Positions 12,540-30,724 of a stretch of DNA of 52,029 bases are shown here, in pieces. The DNA lies in IMG/VR virus record IMGVR_UViG_2869965101_000004, one strand, 5' to 3'. The notes below the pieces were generated by a model that saw only the letters and a list, made by a program, of their open reading frames with translations, ran no database searches and was not told the DNA's origin. This DNA comes from a virus. Lineage: Duplodnaviria > Heunggongvirae > Uroviricota > Caudoviricetes. Every line of letters starts with the position of its first letter. The stretch's first letter is position 1. The position numbers and the translations under genes are program-made.

Positions 12540-13243
12540 ACACCGCAATTTTTAACGGCAAAGCATCCATGACCAGCGTTGAGATCGCAGAGCTGGTGGG
12601 AAGCCGACCAGATAGTGTTAAGAGAACTATTGAAACACTGGCTAAAAAGGGAATCATCCAATTTCCACAGACTGTGGAAATTGAGAATAAACAATCACTT
12701 GGGCCTCGCCGATTTTCTAGCGCGTATGTATTCGAAGGTGAACGAGGTAAGCGCGACAGCATCATTGTCGTCGCACAGCTCTGTCCTGAATTCACAGCTC
12801 GCCTGGTAGATCGCTGGCGCGAACTGGAAGAACAGATCCGTAAGCCAATGAGCGAAATCGAAATGGTTGCCGCGATGGCTCTTGAAGCCGTTCGCCAACA
12901 GAAACGGATCACTCAGGTGGAAGAAAAAGTCAGCCACGTTGCTGAAACAGTCGAGCAAATTAAAAAGGGCACTATTCGTGAGGGCTATGCCGGATATCGC
13001 CAACTGAAAGCAAAAACCGGTTTGTCAGATGATAAATGCCGCAATCTGGTGAACGCCTATCAAATTCCTACAGACACCCATGAGTTCATGACGCCGGACA
13101 GATTGTTGTCACGTCGCGCAATTGTTGCTGTGGAACCGTTTATGGCTGCTTTTTATCGGGTTATGGAGGAAGCAGAACCGCGAGGGACTCGCTGGTATCA
13201 CCCGAAAATGGGGTTATTTCAGGTTATTGGTTGGCAGCGGTGA
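12536..13243 (+). CDS. phage regulatory protein (Rha/antirepressor-like N-terminus)
   Basis: N-terminal motif MTSVEIAELVGSRPDSVKRTIETL resembles the Rha/KilA-N type DNA-binding region. Confidence 0.45.
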   Translation: MNTAIFNGKASMTSVEIAELVGSRPDSVKRTIETLAKKGIIQFPQTVEIENKQSLGPRRFSSAYVFEGERGKRDSIIVVAQLCPEFTARLVDRWRELEEQIRKPMSEIEMVAAMALEAVRQQKRITQVEEKVSHVAETVEQIKKGTIREGYAGYRQLKAKTGLSDDKCRNLVNAYQIPTDTHEFMTPDRLLSRRAIVAVEPFMAAFYRVMEEAEPRGTRWYHPKMGLFQVIGWQR

Positions 13244-14391: not shown

Positions 14392-14612
14392 TCCGCCACA
14401 TCGTTAATTCCCTGTATCACCGATACAACCGTTGCCCCCGTGTGGGGCAGTGGTTCGCCACCAGCAACGGTCACGTTCTGCGGGTTTGCCTAGTCAACGC
14501 TGAAAGCCAGAAAGTCGTGTGCGAACTACAGGGGCGTAGCTACACCATCAGTTACCCTCTGGCGGTATTTCTGTCTGGAAAAATGTTTAAGCGTCTGGGA
14601 GGTGTGGCGTGA
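14388..14612 (+). CDS. hypothetical protein
   Basis: 74-aa ORF, coupled. Confidence 0.3.
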   Translation: MIRHIVNSLYHRYNRCPRVGQWFATSNGHVLRVCLVNAESQKVVCELQGRSYTISYPLAVFLSGKMFKRLGGVA

Positions 14613-14908
14613 ACTGTTTTCAGTTTGTGTGCGGATGTGCTTTCGATAACCCGATTCAGCGCCTGATTATGTTGCGTGTTTTGATGTCGGGTTCTTCAGA
14701 CGGTGAAGGCGAGAGAGTTATTGATCATCAGGTGCTTGCTGATTTCTGCTGTTGTTCTAAGCAAGCGATATTCAGGGAAACCCTGGCACTGGAAAGAGCT
14801 GGTTATCTTCATATCCGAAAAATTGCAACGCTTACTATTGATGCAAAAGCCAGACTACAACCTGCGCGTGGCTACACAATTCTCATGCCGCGGAAGGAGG
14901 TTGTATGA
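14609..14908 (+). CDS. hypothetical protein
   Basis: 99-aa ORF, coupled to the replication initiator. Confidence 0.35.
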   Translation: MNCFQFVCGCAFDNPIQRLIMLRVLMSGSSDGEGERVIDHQVLADFCCCSKQAIFRETLALERAGYLHIRKIATLTIDAKARLQPARGYTILMPRKEVV

Positions 14909-15896
14909 GCCGTTACGCCCCCACACCGGAAGTTATGGCTATTGGTCAAATTAATATTTCCGGCAATGTTACACCTGCGAACTGGTGGAAATATATTCGA
15001 CTACCCAGTGGGCGTCCGGATGCGACGGCTATCGCTCTGCTTTCAGAGATCGTTTACTGGTACCGCCCGACAGAGGTCAGGGATGAGCACACCGGAGCGT
15101 TGCTGGGATATCGCAAGCGTTTTCAGGGCGACAAACTGCAAAGAAGCTACCAGGCGTTTGCTGAGCAGTTTGGTTTCGGGAAAAGGGAAACCGCAGATGC
15201 GCTGAAGCGTCTGCGCGATGCAGGGTTTATTACTCTGGATTTACGCACGGTGGAAATGCTCGATGGGGTGAAATGCAGCAATATTTTGTTTGTCGGGATC
15301 AACCCACAGGCAATTGCGGCCATCACCACACCTTCTTCTGTTTCGCCAGAAAGTAACAGCAATAATGCAATCAGCGATACAGCTATTACGTTAAAACGGA
15401 ACACCCCCGACGTCATAACGGAACAGGGGATACGCCGAATGTTGATACAAATACAGAGATTACTACAGAGATTACAACGGAGACTAAAAACACTATTGAT
15501 GCATCCGCTGACGCGTCTGCGCCAGCGCGTTCTGCCCGACAGGAATATTCACCGGAATTTGAACAGGCCTGGCAGGAATATCCCAAACGTGCTGGTGGCA
15601 ATTCCAAGTCAGCAGCCTTCAAAGCCTGGAAAGCCCGTATCAGGGAAGGAATAAAACCGGAGACCATGCTTGATGGCGTGAAGCGGTATGCCGCCTGGGT
15701 ACGTGCTACAGGAAATACCGGCACACAGTTCGTGAAGCAGGCTGCGACGTTCTTTGGACCCGATCGTCACTTCGAAGATTACTGGCAACAGCCAGCCGCT
15801 CACGGAGGTGGGCGACAGCGACAGGTTGATGTCCTGGCTGGCCTGGGAGCCATGTCTGACAAATTCGGTAAATCCAGTAACAAATTGACATTCTGA
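14905..15896 (+). pseudogene. phage replication initiator (O-like), frameshifted
   Basis: N-terminal part in frame 1 (14905..~15426), C-terminal part (..FEQAWQEYPKRAGGNSKSAAFKAWKARI..GPDRHFEDYW..) in another frame ending 15896; shift maps to a G4 run at 15426..15429. Confidence 0.55.
15453..15488 (+). repeat. three imperfect 12-bp iteron-like repeats inside the initiator gene (candidate ori)
   Basis: ACAGAGATTACT / ACAGAGATTACA / ACGGAGACTAAA, encoding TEIT-TEIT-TETK. Confidence 0.35.
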
Positions 15897-15897
15897 G

Positions 15898-16785
15898 GTG
15901 ACAGCGATGATGACGATTGACCAACGTGAGAAACAAACAAGACTACAGGCGCGAATGGATGAGTTACGGGCAGAGATTGCATTTGCTCAGAAGGGCGAAA
16001 AGCCATGGCCTTATCGTTCCTGCCTGATGCGTGAAGGTCGCGGATATTGCGAAAAACACGGTAAATATCGTACGCATATACTGGTGTGGAGCGATCGTAA
16101 TGGCGAGGACAGAGAAAAAATTTCATGCTGCCCTGACTGCTTGATCGCTGAGGCCAGTTATTTGACCATGGAACTGTCGTCCCTCAAGGCGGAAGAACTG
16201 ACTGATAACGCCGGAATTGCTCTGCGTTTTCGGGACTGCGAGTTTGATAATTATCTGGAGGTTAATCCTGACGCAGCCAGAAATCTTGCGGCCTGTCGCC
16301 GCTATGCGGAGAACTGGCCAGATATGCTGGAGAACGGTACCAGTCTTGTTATGACCGGCAGTTGCGGTACCGGGAAAAATCATCTGGCGGTATCAATGGC
16401 AAAACACATCATCCGTAACTATCTGGCCAGTGTGGAGATCACCGACGTGATGCGCCTTACCCGGGCTGTGAAAAACTGCTGGCGGAATGACAGTGAAAAA
16501 ACAGCGGATGACGTCATTGAGCATTATGCGTCACTGGATTTGCTGATTGTCGACGAAGTCGGCGTTCAGTTTGGCAGTGCGGCTGAAATGGCCATTTTGC
16601 AGGAAATTATCAATGCCCGGTATGAGGGTATTTTGCCAACTATCTTGATCAGCAATCTTTCACCGGAAGAATTGTGGGCGTTCATCAGTCCCCGGATTGC
16701 CGACAGGATCACCGATGGCGGGCGCAACTGGTTGTCGTTTAACTGGCCCAGCTACCGTTCTCGTATCGGAGGTGTTGCCGCATGA
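15898..16785 (+). CDS. DnaC-like helicase loader (IstB-type AAA+ ATPase)
   Basis: Walker A TGSCGTGKNHLA and Walker B LLIVDEVG. Confidence 0.8.
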   Translation: MTAMMTIDQREKQTRLQARMDELRAEIAFAQKGEKPWPYRSCLMREGRGYCEKHGKYRTHILVWSDRNGEDREKISCCPDCLIAEASYLTMELSSLKAEELTDNAGIALRFRDCEFDNYLEVNPDAARNLAACRRYAENWPDMLENGTSLVMTGSCGTGKNHLAVSMAKHIIRNYLASVEITDVMRLTRAVKNCWRNDSEKTADDVIEHYASLDLLIVDEVGVQFGSAAEMAILQEIINARYEGILPTILISNLSPEELWAFISPRIADRITDGGRNWLSFNWPSYRSRIGGVAA

Positions 16786-18183
16786 CCAGCCAGAACACCC
16801 CGGCATGGCGTAACGATGACCTGGAAGGCGCTGTCATCGGTGCGTTTTTTCTGCGTGGGGCCGATCCGGAAGTGATGGATATTCTGGCCACACTTCCGGC
16901 GGATGTATTTTTTGTGCGTCAGTACCGGGATATTTACGCGGGGATTTGCAGACAGGCTCGCATATCCGGCGTCATTGACCCCGTACTGCTGTGCAATGAG
17001 ATGCCGGAACTTGCCCCGGTGATTACCGACACCGGACGCAAAACCTGGGTGAAGTCTTCACTGGAGCACTATGTCGCAGCGTTGCGGCGCAATGCCGCAC
17101 TGCGCGATGCAGAAAAAACACTGACTGAAGCATTACAGAATTTACGTGATGCGTATACCTGTGAAGCAGCCGAGGATGCCCTGAAGGATGTGCAGAACAT
17201 GATGGCCTCACTGTCGACCGGAAAGGGCGTCATTCAGCCGGTTCACATTGATGATGTCCTTCTGGAAGTGGTCGACCGTGTTGAATGCCGCAATCAGGGA
17301 CTGGAGAAATCCAGGGCGCTGATGACCGGTATTGATGAACTGGACGCAAAAACGGGCGGTATGGAGCCCGGAGACCTGGTATTCATTGCCGCCCGTCCTT
17401 CGATGGGGAAAACCGAACTTGCGCTGGACATCATCGACAAGGTGACTGAGCAGGGGCATGGCGTGCTTCTGTTCACCATGGAGATGGCGAACATCCAGAT
17501 TGGTGAACGTATGGTGTCTGCTGCCGGTGGAATGCCGGTATCCCGTCTTAAGTCTGTTGCCCGTTTTGAAGATGAAGACTGGGCGCGTTTCTCGCAGGGC
17601 GTGGGACGAATGACGGGGCGTAATATCTGGATGGTGGACCAGGCAAACCTGACCCATTGATGAGATATGTGCAACCACGAAGCACCACCGGATGAAACAC
17701 CCGGAAACGGCGCTGGTGGTGGTCGATTACCTCGGCCTGATTAAAACCCGCAGTACGGGGCGTCACGACCTTGCGGTGGGGGAAATCTCAAAGGGACTTA
17801 AAAGCCTGGCAAAATCCGGCGGTTTTCCGCTGATTGCTCTGAGCCAGCTCTCCCGCGGCGTGGAATCCAGACCCAATAAACGCCCAATGAACTCGGACCT
17901 GAAAAACTCCGGGGAAATCGAGGCGGATGCCGACATCATTCTGATGCTTTACAGGGATGAGGTATACAACCCGGAAACTCAGGCCAGAGGCATAGCAGAA
18001 ATCAACATCACGAAACAGCGTAATGGCACGCTCGGGACCATTTACCGGCGTTTTCATAACGGACATTTTCTGCCTGTGGACCAGGAGAGTGCCCGGGTTC
18101 TTTCCACACCCATGACGCCGGGCAATCCGCGCAGATACAGCAATAACCGCATGTCGGGCAGTAAAACGGAGCGTTTATTTTGA
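16782..18183 (+). pseudogene. DnaB-like replicative helicase, frameshifted near 17650
   Basis: N-terminal ORF ends ...DQANLTH* at 17660; DnaB-like continuation [30 protein letters not shown]... is open in the next frame from 17653. Confidence 0.75.
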
Positions 18184-18482: not shown

Positions 18483-19478
18483 GTGACCGTGAGAGCATTG
18501 TTGACTCCTGAAATTGCCCCGCGAATGGGGATTGTATTGTTCAGGCCCGGTTCAGAGCTGATGCCCCTGTTTATGCAGGGGCGTGTCCTGCTGGAGCCTG
18601 AGCCGGAACGTTATTCATCTTTCGCCAGCGGTGCCGTTCCGGCAGCATCACAACCGCTGGCGGATGATCCTGCCGTTCGGGCCGTGTTCCGCCATGAGGC
18701 GGTGATCCGTCGTGCTGGTGGCGTGGAATGCCTTGAGAGCTGGTTACTTCGTGAAAAGGGCTGTCAGTGGCCTCATTCCGACTGGCACAGCGAGAACATG
18801 ACCACAATGCGGCACGCGCCAGGCGCAATCCGTCTGTGCTGGCACTGTGACAATCTTCTCCGTGACCAGTTCACGGAACGGCTGGAATCAATGGCAACGG
18901 ATAACTGTGCCCGCTGGGTGTTGTCTGTTGTGCGTCGGGATCTCGGTTTTGATGACAGTCACGTTGTGACAATGCCGGAACTGTGCTGGTGGCTGATTCG
19001 TAATGACCTGGCGGATGCCTTACCGGAAAGTGCAGCCCGTAAGGCACTGAGATTACCGAAGCCTGTTGTGCCGTCTGTCACCCGGGAAAGTGACCTTGTG
19101 CCTTCGGTTCCTGCCACCAGCATCATCCAGGATAAGGCGAAAAAGGTGCTGGCGCTGAAAGTGGATCCGGAGTCGCCGGAGTCTTTTATGTTACGCCCAA
19201 AACGTCGCCGCTGGGTTAACGAGAAATACACACGCTGGGTGAAGACACAGCCGTGTGCGTGTTGTGGTAAGCCAGCCGACGATCCCCATCACCTGATTGG
19301 TCATGGTCAGGGCTGAATGGGGACAAAATCTCACGATATTTTCACGCTACCGCTGTGTCGGGAGCATCACAACGAGCTTCATGCGGATCCTCTGGCGTTC
19401 GAAGAAAAGCATGGTTCTCAGGTTGATTTAATTTTTCGTTTTCTTGATCACGCCTTTGCAACTGGCGTGCTTGGGTAA
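18483..19478 (+). pseudogene. DUF968-like phage protein with HNH-like C-terminus, in-frame TGA at 19314..19316
   Basis: ...CACCGKPADDPHHLIGHGQG*MGTKSHDIFTLPLCREHHNELH... is one frame with the cysteine/histidine motif split by TGA. Confidence 0.5.
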
Positions 19479-21257: not shown

Positions 21258-22307
21258 ATGCTTAATACTGTAAAAATATCCAGTTGTGAGTTAATCAACG
21301 CCGACTGCCTGGAATTTATCCGGTCGTTACCCGAAAATTCTGTTGACCTGATAGTCACGGACCCGCCGTACTTTAAAGTGAAGCCTGAGGGCTGGGATAA
21401 CCAGTGGAAGGGCGACGATGATTACCTGAAGTGGCTGGACCAGTGTCTGGCGCAGTTCTGGCGGGTGCTGAAACCTGCCGGAAGTCTTTACCTGTTCTGT
21501 GGTCATCGCCTGGCATCTGATATCGAAATCATGATGCGTGAACGCTTCAGTGTGCTGAACCATATTATCTGGGCGAAGCCTTCCGGACGCTGGAACGGGT
21601 GCAACAAGGAAAGCCTGCGGGCGTATTTCCCCGCCACAGAGCGCATTCTGTTCGCGGAACATTATCAGGGGCCGTATCGTCCGAAAGATGCCGGGTATGA
21701 GGCGAAGGGCAGGGCACTGAAACAGCATGTGATGGCCCCGCTGATTTCTTACTTTCGTGATGCATGCGCGGCCCTGGGGATAACGGCAAAACAGATTGCA
21801 GATGCCACAGGAAAGAAAAACATGGTGTCGCACTGGTTCAGTGCCAGTCAGTGGCAGTTGCCGAACGAAAGCGATTATCTGAAATTACAGGCACTGTTTG
21901 CCAGGGTGGCAGAAGAGAAGCATCAGCGGGGGGAACTGGAAAAGCCCCACCACCAGCTGGTGGATACGTATACTTCACTGAACCGACAGTATGCGGAGCT
22001 GCAGAGTGAATATAAACATCTGCGGCGGTATTTTGGTGTGACGGCGCAGGTGCCGTACACGGATGTGTGGACACATAAACCGGTGCAGTTCTATCCCGGG
22101 AAACATCCGTGCGAAAAACCGGCAGAAATGCTGCAGCAGATAATCAGCGCAAGTAGTCGTCCTGGTGATCTGGTTGCGGATTTTTTCATGGGGTCGGGTT
22201 CAACGGTAAAAGCGGCACTGGCGCTCGGGCGTCGTGCGATTGGCGTTGAACTGGAGACAGGACGTTTTGAGCAGACAGTCAGGGAAGTTCAGGATTTAAT
22301 CGTTTGA
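21258..22307 (+). CDS. DNA methyltransferase (N6-adenine/N4-cytosine type, DPPY motif)
   Basis: Motif IV DPPY (LIVTDPPYF) and AdoMet-binding motif FFMGSGST at the C-terminus. Confidence 0.8.
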   Translation: MLNTVKISSCELINADCLEFIRSLPENSVDLIVTDPPYFKVKPEGWDNQWKGDDDYLKWLDQCLAQFWRVLKPAGSLYLFCGHRLASDIEIMMRERFSVLNHIIWAKPSGRWNGCNKESLRAYFPATERILFAEHYQGPYRPKDAGYEAKGRALKQHVMAPLISYFRDACAALGITAKQIADATGKKNMVSHWFSASQWQLPNESDYLKLQALFARVAEEKHQRGELEKPHHQLVDTYTSLNRQYAELQSEYKHLRRYFGVTAQVPYTDVWTHKPVQFYPGKHPCEKPAEMLQQIISASSRPGDLVADFFMGSGSTVKAALALGRRAIGVELETGRFEQTVREVQDLIV

Positions 22308-22432: not shown

Positions 22433-22439
22433 TCACATA

Positions 22440-22513
22440 CCGCCATTAGCTCATCAGGAAAGAGCGCCAGCCTTCGAAGCTGGCTGCGCGGGGTTCAAGT
22501 CCCCGATGGCGGT
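22440..22513 (+). tRNA. tRNA-Arg (anticodon UCG)
   Basis: Acceptor CCGCCAT/ATGGCGG, anticodon loop CTTCGAA, T-arm CGGGG-TTCAAGT-CCCCG; no encoded CCA. Confidence 0.55.
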
Positions 22514-22529
22514 TCATTATCTGTATCCT

Positions 22530-23477: not shown

Positions 23478-25358
23478 ATGGTGGAAAGAACCATGGCATT
23501 TAAACACTATGATGTTGTCAGGGCGGCGTCGCCGTCAGATCTTGCGGAAAAGCTGACACATAAACTGAAAGAGGGCTGGCAGCCGTTTGGTAGTCCGGTG
23601 GCCATAACCCCTTATACTCTGATGCAGGCGATTGCAGCAGAAGGTGCAGTAATCAGCGCCACCAGCAACCCGGAGTATTACTTTGTTGTGGTTCTGGCAG
23701 GGCAGTCAAACGGCATGTCGTATGGTGAAGGCCTTCCGCTGCCGGGGACATATGACCGTCCGGACCCGCGTATTAAGCAACTGGCGCGTCGCAGTACGGT
23801 GACACCGGGCGGTGCAGCATGCAAATATAACGACATCATTCCGGCGGACCATTGTCTGCATGATGTGCAGGACATGAGCCGTCTTAACCATCCGAAAGCG
23901 GACCTGTCAAAGGGGCAGTACGGAACCGTGGGGCAGGGGCTGCATATCGCCAAAAAACTGCTGCCGTTTATACCGGCGAATGCGGGCATTCTGCTGGTTC
24001 CGTGCTGTCGTGGTGGTTCAGCGTTCACCACCGGAGCTGATGGCACATACAGTGACGCGAGTGGTGCCTCGGAGAATTCAACCCGCTGGGGTGTGGACAA
24101 GCCGCTGTATAAGGACCTTATCGGTCGAACAAAAGCGGCACTGGAGAAGAACCCGAAAAATGTGCTGTTTGCCGTGGTGTGGATGCAGGGGGAATTTGAT
24201 TTTGGCGGTACGCCGGCAAATCATGCCGCACAGTTTGGTGCGCTGGTTGATAAATTCCGTGCAGACCTGGCGGATATGGCAGGCCAGTGCGTCGGTGGCT
24301 CTGCTGGCGGTGTTCCCTGGATATGCGGGGACACGACGTATTTCTGGAAGCAGAAGAACGAATCCACGTACCAGACGGTGTACGGCAGCTATAAAAATAA
24401 AACGGAAAAGAATATCCATTTCGTACCGTTCATGACCGATGAGAACGGGGTGAATGTGCCGACGAACAAACCGGAAGAAGACCCGGACATTCCGGGTATC
24501 GGTTATTACGGTTCGAAATGGCGTGACAGCTCAGCCACCTGGACGTCACAGGACAGGGCGAGCCATTTCAGTTCATGGGCTCGCCGTGGGATTATTTCCG
24601 ACCGTCTGGCAACGGCGATTCTGAGCTGCGCGGGTAAGTCTTCTGCGTTTGTTAATGGTACTGCCGGGGTGGTTGTTCCAGACAGGCCGGTTACCACCTC
24701 AGAGTCTGTAATTTTTTACGATGCCAAAAAAGCTACAGACAATCAGCTGAAACCTTATGGCTGGGACGGTATGTATGGCAGACGCACACTGGTTGATGAC
24801 AGCGGCAATAAAGCTCTGCGAATTGAGAAAAATAACAGCGCGAAATCCTGGTCAATGTACTGTGATATTGCTGCAGACAAGGCAAAACTTTTACTGGAAA
24901 AAGGCGGGGAAATTGCTGTCCGGTTTAAAATCCCCGAAAACGTCAATCTTGAGACAACCAGAAACAAGTATGCCTTTGGTTTGTACTGGCGAATAGCGGA
25001 ATGGCCGGGTGAGGGTGGTGAAGGCCATCTGAGTTCTTTCTTTGTCCAGACAGATAAAGCCAGTATTAATGTTGCATACCATCATACAGTTAATCAACAA
25101 AAAGAACTTGGCACGTTTGGCGCATTCGACCATGACTGGCATACGCTTGCATTTAAATTTAAGGGCAGTAACAGCATTAATGTTACTCCGGTGCTTGATG
25201 GTGTGGATGGACAGGCGTTTGACCTGGTGAAATGGGCCAATACTGCTAATGGACTCAACAGGTTTGTCATTACGGATATTACAGGTAGTGCAGAAACCTA
25301 CCCTGTACTTATTGATACGGTGGAAGTTAAAGCAAACAAAGCTGGAGCAGCCGCATAA
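23478..25358 (+). CDS. prophage sialate O-acetylesterase (NanS-p-like)
   Basis: N-terminal DUF1737-like region and SGNH/SASA motif VVLAGQSNGMSYGEG; same position as in Stx-type phages. Confidence 0.7.
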   Translation: MVERTMAFKHYDVVRAASPSDLAEKLTHKLKEGWQPFGSPVAITPYTLMQAIAAEGAVISATSNPEYYFVVVLAGQSNGMSYGEGLPLPGTYDRPDPRIKQLARRSTVTPGGAACKYNDIIPADHCLHDVQDMSRLNHPKADLSKGQYGTVGQGLHIAKKLLPFIPANAGILLVPCCRGGSAFTTGADGTYSDASGASENSTRWGVDKPLYKDLIGRTKAALEKNPKNVLFAVVWMQGEFDFGGTPANHAAQFGALVDKFRADLADMAGQCVGGSAGGVPWICGDTTYFWKQKNESTYQTVYGSYKNKTEKNIHFVPFMTDENGVNVPTNKPEEDPDIPGIGYYGSKWRDSSATWTSQDRASHFSSWARRGIISDRLATAILSCAGKSSAFVNGTAGVVVPDRPVTTSESVIFYDAKKATDNQLKPYGWDGMYGRRTLVDDSGNKALRIEKNNSAKSWSMYCDIAADKAKLLLEKGGEIAVRFKIPENVNLETTRNKYAFGLYWRIAEWPGEGGEGHLSSFFVQTDKASINVAYHHTVNQQKELGTFGAFDHDWHTLAFKFKGSNSINVTPVLDGVDGQAFDLVKWANTANGLNRFVITDITGSAETYPVLIDTVEVKANKAGAAA

Positions 25359-29381: not shown

Positions 29382-29596
29382 AATGTTTCCCCATATTCAG
29401 TGTTGCTGATTTGTATTATCTGAAGTTGCTTTTACGTTAATTTGATGCAGATCAATCAATACGATAGTAAGGCAGTATGACTTTCCGTGAGACAGATGCT
29501 GGCCAACGTGGGATATTTAACGCGGGTTAACATCGTTGTCAGAGCCGCATGGGTGAGCTGTTGCTACACCCCGGTATTTCCACCACGGAGGCCAGC

Positions 29597-30724
29597 ATGA
29601 ACAACAATAACACATTGTACGTCGGGTTAGATGTTCACAAAGAATCGATTACTGTCGCTTATGCTATCAATTCAGAACCTGTTGAACTGATGGGTAAAAT
29701 TGGCACATCACCTACTGATATTCAGAATCTTTGTAAACGTCTCAGGTCAAAGTCATCGCAGGTCAGTATCGTTTATGAAGCGGGGCCCTGTGGTTATGGA
29801 CTTTATCGTCGGCTGGTGAAATCCGGTTTTGACTGCATGGTCTGCGCCCCCTCACTTATCCCGAAAAAACCGGGGGAGCGGGTTAAAACCGATCGCCGTG
29901 ATGCCATCAGACTTGTGCGTTCACTGCGTGCAGGAGATCTTTCTGCTGTCTACGTACCCGGCATTGAAGATGAGGCATTCCGGGATTTGGCCCGGGCATG
30001 GGCATCTGCCCGCGATGATTTACGGCATGCAAGGCAACGTCTGAAATCGTTTCTTCTGGTTCATGGGGTCCATTATGTCGGGCGAGCAGATTGGGGCCCT
30101 GCACACCGACGCTGGCTCAGCAAATACTCATTCGAAAGTCCCTGGCGACAATTAGCTTTTGACGAACACCGTCGTACAATAGAAGACCGGCAGGCACAAT
30201 GTGAACGGCTGGAATCCGCCCTGAAGGAGGCCGTTACCGAATGGAGGCTGTATCCGGTAGTAGAGGCGCTGCAAGCCATGCGAGGGATTCAGTTTATTAC
30301 TGCGGTTGGATTAATTTCTGAACTGGGTGATCTGACCCGTTTTGAACATCCACGACAACTGATGTCATGGTTTGGTATCACGCCATCAGAATATTCATCG
30401 GGTGGAAGCAGACATCAGGGCAGCATTACCAAAGCCGGAAACAGCTATGCCAGAAAGCTATTGGTCGAGGCAGCGTGGAGTTACCGTCATCCGGCACGCA
30501 TCAGTCCGGCAATACAAAAAAGGCAGGAAAATTTACCCCGCCCCGTCATTGACAGAGCATGGGATGCTCAACTCAGGCTTTGTAAGAGGTATCGAAAACT
30601 TCAGGCCAAAGGAAAGAATGTCAATATTACAATTGTTGCTGTTGCACGTGAGCTGGCGGGTTTTATCTGGGATATGGGCCGAATAGCAATGTCTGTCGCA
30701 CAACAACCACAATGTCACAAATAA
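29597..30724 (+). CDS. IS110-family (DEDD) transposase/recombinase
   Basis: N-terminal LYVGLDVHKESI... RuvC-like start and C-terminal ...QFITAVGLISELGDLTRFEHPRQLMSWFGITPSEYSSGG. Confidence 0.8.
   Translation: MNNNNTLYVGLDVHKESITVAYAINSEPVELMGKIGTSPTDIQNLCKRLRSKSSQVSIVYEAGPCGYGLYRRLVKSGFDCMVCAPSLIPKKPGERVKTDRRDAIRLVRSLRAGDLSAVYVPGIEDEAFRDLARAWASARDDLRHARQRLKSFLLVHGVHYVGRADWGPAHRRWLSKYSFESPWRQLAFDEHRRTIEDRQAQCERLESALKEAVTEWRLYPVVEALQAMRGIQFITAVGLISELGDLTRFEHPRQLMSWFGITPSEYSSGGSRHQGSITKAGNSYARKLLVEAAWSYRHPARISPAIQKRQENLPRPVIDRAWDAQLRLCKRYRKLQAKGKNVNITIVAVARELAGFIWDMGRIAMSVAQQPQCHK

Follow-up and report, generated by a model that had tools for sequence, protein, structure and literature searches.

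The replication modules that most resemble the one studied here are those of Stx-converting phages and of phage phiP27. They consist of an initiator, a DnaC-like loader and a DnaB-like helicase, in this order, and in their records the three genes go by the names replication protein O, DnaC and helicase. The O/P pair of phage lambda is another point of comparison. In the present work we analyzed a stretch of 52,029 nucleotides (IMG/VR record IMGVR_UViG_2869965101_000004, Caudoviricetes), which is called the window below. The window occurs letter for letter in CP026762.1, a chromosome of the Shigella boydii lineage; the window starts with a D-alanyl-D-alanine carboxypeptidase gene, which is followed by a lambdoid prophage. 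Positions 14905-18183 hold three co-oriented genes of the phiP27 type (initiator, DnaC-like loader and DnaB-family helicase), the replication module of this defective prophage. As written, both the initiator and the helicase genes are frameshifted. The evidence splits the two genes. The helicase frameshift is a genuine mutation that made a pseudogene fixed in the lineage, while the initiator frameshift is most likely (with a probability of about 0.85) a homopolymer error of a PacBio assembly that is absent from the DNA of the organism.

From the C-terminal half of the initiator through the helicase, the window has 87-96% DNA identity to Stx2a- and Stx1a-converting phages and approximately 90% identity to phiP27. 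Unlike those phages, it carries another allele of the N-terminal half of the initiator: the DNA homology begins at a 12-nucleotide repeat inside the gene (at 15453 or 15492). The window also differs in that its helicase is dead by one added C and in that its prophage is riddled with insertion sequence (IS) elements. The likeness to lambda lies in an initiator that stands directly upstream of helicase-loading genes. Unlike lambda, the prophage has a DnaB-type helicase and a DnaC-type loader of its own and no P protein. The features of the module are as follows (ORF, open reading frame).

14905..15896, plus strand: replication initiator gene, “O-like” by position; read as an ORF of 249 amino acids (14905..15654) and a leftover ORF of 76 amino acids (15666..15896)
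15388..15425, plus strand: two 16-bp direct repeats (ACGTyAwAACGGAACA) that bracket the C run of the initiator
15404..15408, plus strand: initiator frameshift site at codon 167-168, within the linker between the domains; a C5 run, where every intact relative has C6
15426..15429, plus strand: G4 run without a lesion; G4 in intact relatives, G3 only in CP026866
15452..15483, plus strand: 12-nucleotide tandem repeat TACAGAGATTAC, 2.7 copies, encoding the linker TEITTEITTE
15907..16785, plus strand: DnaC-like helicase loader, intact, 292 amino acids
16782..18183, plus strand: pseudogene of a DnaB-family replicative helicase, split into ORFs of 292 and 163 amino acids
17653..17655, plus strand: helicase frameshift site, CCC in the window and CC in intact genes, i.e., an insertion of one base
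19314..19316, plus strand: nonsense codon in a DUF968 gene, TGA in the window and GGA in intact genes

A sequence-only reading of the window had reported that both genes change frame, at the G4 run 15426..15429 in the initiator and at the C run 17653..17655 in the helicase. We used as a reference the locus of NZ_CP195498 from E. coli, which is 99.6% identical and has both genes annotated as intact. The alignment contains exactly two single-base indels: C5 in the window versus C6 in the reference at 15404-15408, and CCC versus CC at 17653-17655. The disruption of both genes was thereby confirmed, as was the location of the N-terminal part of the initiator (14905..15654) and its C-terminal part (frame open over 15366..15896) in different frames. 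Alignment to intact relatives bore out the position of the helicase lesion as well. The G4 run, in contrast, was ruled out as the initiator lesion, as it is G4 in all intact relatives and the true site is approximately 20 nucleotides away. Because both frames are open over 15366..15654, inspection by eye was not enough to place this site.

With one C added at 15404..15408, the initiator becomes residue-for-residue identical to an intact replication protein of 330 amino acids that is present on at least 1000 contigs; the true junction lies between ...TLKRNTP and RRHNGTGDTPNVDTNTEITTE.... With one C deleted from 17653-17655, the helicase becomes a DnaB-family protein of 466 amino acids that differs from WP_000203849 in two residues (A137V and P161L). 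As one single-base repair per gene yields a full-length protein, the split frames are not a product of chance. The helicase junction had been described as lying between DQANLT and PIDEICATT. This site is correct, but a base has been inserted there, and neither reading includes that proline.

The assignment of the helicase to the DnaB-like proteins is well supported. Its N-terminal ORF (16782..17660, 292 amino acids) contains PF00772 and the first half of PF03796; the second half of PF03796 is encoded by the C-terminal ORF (17692..18183, 163 amino acids) in another frame. The repaired product of 466 amino acids matches PF03796 (E=7.8e-74), PF00772 (E=1.2e-5), phrog_19 (3.5e-115) and structures of E. 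coli DnaB (6bbm, E=3e-64), and has the DnaB N-terminal domain together with a RecA-like DnaB_C domain with Walker A and B motifs. It scores below the NCBIfam equivalog cut-offs, with 309.8 bits versus 385 for TIGR00665 (DnaB) and 278.9 versus 498.65 for TIGR03600 (phage_DnaB). The helicase is thus a member of the DnaB family at the Pfam level and of no curated equivalog. In the window its frame is broken at residue 291 of 466, in the RecA-like domain between Walker A and Walker B.

The exact truncated helicase of 292 amino acids was found on 131 contigs in 164 blocks of the searched collection, and the fragment of 163 amino acids on 138 contigs. NCBI, Logan and ENA are the sources, where the protein bears the name Shigella boydii. 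The majority of the contigs have a length of 5-10 kb and end at IS elements, as in short-read assemblies. The CCC allele is present in 10 of the 10 aligned sequences of the lineage, among them the drafts AMKA01, AMKD01 and ABHRDA01, the NCTC assembly UAUR01 and the complete sequence CP049281, and in none of the 230 complete E. coli genomes that have the helicase segment. CP049281 belongs to S. boydii 600657 of clade 2; its PacBio RS II assembly was corrected with Illumina reads at 112x (PMC7545283). Because the exact truncated product is shared across independent projects and technologies, including this Illumina-polished chromosome, the helicase frameshift is a genuine mutation.

The same data bear on the view that both frameshifts are sequencing errors and that the organism has an intact replication module. 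Both sites are in C runs and the record apparently comes from a long-read-only project, as this view would have it. However, many projects contain the helicase CCC, including drafts broken at IS elements and assemblies obtained with different technologies, and an insertion that turns CC into CCC is atypical of homopolymer miscalls. An error at the helicase site is refuted, and an error at both sites is therefore next to impossible. The sequence-only reading had offered a choice between two inactivated genes and two sequencing errors; the first option holds for the helicase, and most likely the second for the initiator.

The change from CC to CCC arose once and was inherited by the whole lineage. 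As the frameshift cuts the RecA-like domain, a functional hexameric helicase is impossible, and the prophage is consequently unable to replicate autonomously. This lesion is ordinary prophage decay. It fits the other real lesions of the prophage, which bears at least eight IS insertions (four of the IS3 family, two of the IS110 family and two of the IS66 family; the tape-measure gene is interrupted by one of the IS elements) and the nonsense codon in the DUF968 gene. The two pieces of the DUF968 gene product, of 275 and 53 amino acids, are also called in draft relatives, whose short-read origin we infer, and this split is therefore a real lesion common to the lineage. Together with the fixed helicase frameshift, the nonsense codon and the IS elements are the expected pattern of Shigella prophage decay, and there is nothing unusual in them.

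The distribution of the initiator lesion is different. The lineage was tracked by the exact DnaC-like loader protein of 292 amino acids, which an exact-protein look-up found on 270 contigs and under the name Shigella; the capsid protein is too widespread for a lineage marker and served as an indel control only. An intact initiator is encoded on 218 of the lineage contigs in a form of 326 amino acids and in LPTT01, AAVBZP01 and AMKC01 in the form of 330 amino acids, the two forms differing in the copy number of the polymorphic 12-nucleotide repeat. The C5 allele occurs within the lineage in five assemblies only: CP026762 (the window), CP026797, CP026866, CP026872 and PTES01. Four of them were found by their exact frameshifted products (249, 245, 245 and 179 amino acids) and CP026872 by alignment. 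C6 is present in all of the drafts, which we take to be short-read assemblies, as well as in the NCTC assembly and in the relative polished with Illumina reads (AMKD01, AMKA01, AMKC01, LPTT01, AAVBZP01, ABHRDA01, Logan SRR36302412, UAUR01 and CP049281).

The project of Kim et al. 2018 reportedly comprises 59 historical Shigella strains sequenced with PacBio, and CP026774-86, CP026832 and CP026878 are attributed to it by other papers. From these neighbouring accessions in the accession block we infer that the five C5 assemblies belong to this project, which is a CDC PacBio-only one. The homopolymer deletion is then confined to long-read-only assemblies, as judged by this assignment of technology, and is absent from short-read or polished sequences of near-identical strains. 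Moreover, two local markers, a single-nucleotide polymorphism at 13109 and the indel of the 12-nucleotide repeat, split the lineage into two groups, and both C5 and C6 occur in each of them. If C5 were real, its distribution would therefore call for two or more independent slips or reversions.

The other four C5 assemblies contain further private single-base indels. All of these are in homopolymers, and most are deletions in G/C runs:

CP026872: three G/C-run deletions within 3 kb, at window-equivalent positions 15066, 16940 and 17014
PTES01: three G/C-run deletions, at window-equivalent positions 14435, 14444 and 17778
CP026797: one deletion, G4 to G3, at window-equivalent position 23912, which splits an esterase gene
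CP026866: G4 to G3 at 15426 and two indels in A/T runs

Besides the esterase gene, the private G/C-run deletions in CP026797.1, CP026872.1 and PTES01 split the helicase gene and an ORF of 74 amino acids.

Errors of long-read consensus sequences are mostly homopolymer indels (PMC12007338). The C6 run of the initiator is the sole G/C run of at least six bases in the 8.9 kb shared by the compared sequences. The missing C at 15404-15408, in what is the longest G/C homopolymer of the region, would thus have been dropped from the consensus of a PacBio RS II assembly that was not polished. This resembles the known false pseudogenes of unpolished long-read assemblies, in that it is a single-base deletion in a long G/C run, is found in one long-read project and not in draft or Illumina-polished relatives, and is accompanied by more such deletions in sister assemblies. 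Since C5 is limited to five assemblies of one accession block, is polyphyletic and is absent from short-read and polished relatives, we consider the initiator frameshift most likely an assembly error. The initiator gene would then probably be intact (330 amino acids) but without a working helicase partner.

Several observations weigh against this conclusion. The PacBio-only status of CP026762 is derived from the accession block and not from its record. Apart from the initiator site, the window has no single-base indel relative to its relatives over approximately 20.5 kb, 12.3 kb and 9.3 kb, and its duplicated IS copies are gap-free against each other. The base calls are also correct in its three G6 runs and its single G7 run (at 21928, 40996, 43567 and 44734). 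In this it is unlike typical assemblies with false pseudogenes, as it has one candidate error in approximately 30 kb and four other G6-G7 runs without errors. Furthermore, C5 was found in none of the 221 complete E. coli genomes that have the same 61-nucleotide context, many of which are probably long-read assemblies, and miscalls at the site are therefore not universal. Finally, C5 is present in one E. coli lineage (a product of 247 amino acids on 16 contigs), where several clean contigs with it come from sequencing runs that are independent of each other. The allele appears to be real in that lineage, which means that slippage at the C run happens in nature.

A rival reading is that both frameshifts are real, in which case the strain would have two true pseudogenes among its three replication genes. 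Once the helicase was dead, the initiator would have been under neutral drift, and slippage during replication would have cost its C6 run one C. The evident decay of the prophage (IS insertions, the DUF968 nonsense codon and the helicase frameshift itself), the otherwise indel-free window and the C6-to-C5 alleles in other E. coli backgrounds are in favor of such a history. It would nevertheless require at least two independent slips or reversions within a very young clade, as the protein of 326 amino acids is identical on 218 contigs. The slips would have hit strains of one PacBio project only, and every examined strain of that project. Private single-base indels of this kind, mostly deletions in G/C runs, also occur elsewhere in the sister assemblies, which is a signature of the platform. 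In addition, the number of real slips expected at one C6 site in so uniform a clade would be well below one, by a rough estimate from literature mutation rates. We therefore regard two real frameshifts as unlikely. A related possibility, rated slightly lower still, is that the C run between the 16-bp direct repeats is a genuine slippage hot spot that repeatedly switches the initiator off in E. coli and Shigella prophage lineages, the window allele being one of several independent events. Approximately 21 distinct frameshifted variants of the initiator with the same junction are present in public data.

We also considered programmed recoding (a ribosomal frameshift or transcriptional slippage) at one or both sites, by which full-length proteins would still be made. 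For the initiator, slippage of tRNA-Pro into the -1 frame on CC-CCC-G of the C5 allele would, judging by the sequence, restore the exact wild-type protein, but no evidence points to its use. Each protein is encoded in a single uninterrupted frame in all close homologues, and no conserved two-frame arrangement with a slippery site was seen in them. In-frame versions are present in 221 (initiator) and 230 (helicase) complete E. coli genomes, and neither shifted allele is. There is no slippery heptamer, and the helicase site ACC C-AU UGA allows no re-pairing of tRNA. Runs of five or three C are, besides, too short for efficient transcriptional slippage. Recoding was rejected on these grounds and is extremely improbable; a PacBio homopolymer error is still the preferred explanation of the initiator frameshift.

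The initiator had been called O-like. This name stands by position and layout only. The intact protein of 330 amino acids matches phrog_270, “replication initiation protein”, over residues 2-329, i.e., its full length (E=4.6e-78), and further matches, to DnaD-like or primosomal PHROGs, cover its C-terminal part. Its matches to O-like PHROGs are weak (phrog_391, 6e-7; phrog_678, 8.4e-5). No match was obtained in Pfam at E up to 0.01, the model of the lambda O N-terminal domain included, or in NCBIfam at E up to 0.001, and the search of solved structures gave no homologue. The layout is that of lambda O: two domains are joined by a linker with the 16-bp direct repeats and the 12-nucleotide tandem repeat. 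The start of the homology to Stx-converting phages and phiP27 within this linker suggests a mosaic joint, as in lambda O. By the same analogy, the linker repeats are possibly candidate origin iterons. The leftover ORF of 76 amino acids by itself is found on 53 contigs.

The main value of these results concerns the quality of annotation. They imply no new biology, and both outcomes are ordinary and of known kinds. The helicase pseudogene is a solid marker, common to the lineage, of the inability of the S. boydii prophage to self-replicate. The initiator “pseudogene”, in turn, is not to be scored as gene decay without read support. Since several sister assemblies clearly show G/C-run deletions at the same locus, pseudogene counts from the unpolished PacBio reference set of Shigella are probably inflated by G/C-homopolymer deletions.

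The loader between the two frameshifted genes contains the IstB/DnaC AAA+ domain (PF01695, E=4e-14) and matches phrog_50 (E=3.1e-87); the match to NF005931 (DnaC, 4.5e-36) is under the cut-off of that model. The form of 295 amino acids with a GTG start has no exact match in the collection, in which the form of 292 amino acids with an ATG start is present. At 15953 the loader gene lacks a 21-nucleotide tandem duplication found in most E. coli relatives (292 versus 299 amino acids). This loss or gain of 21 nucleotides is an in-frame natural polymorphism that is seen in Stx phages too. PHROGs 23060 (76 amino acids), 23150, 11530 and 22964 match only fragments of the replication genes (15666-15896, 16782-18183 and 15898-16785) and appear to have been founded on genes that were called in pieces in other records.

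Several observations were made outside the replication module. Between the lysis and terminase genes there is an inverted pair of segments, 29467-33492 and 34202-39493, each composed of an IS110-family and an IS66-family element. The two copies are 99.9% identical without gaps, and one of them is broken by an IS3-family element (approximately 35393-36651). In the draft relative AMKD01000048.1, a 10-nucleotide duplication at window-equivalent position 21837 splits an N6/N4 DNA methylase gene, the window copy of which is intact (349 amino acids). Five substitutions private to the window are located at 22484-22507, within tRNA-Arg(tcg) (22439-22515) of a tRNA-Met/Arg/Arg cluster, where all four relatives agree with each other; they may result from gene conversion by another tRNA copy.

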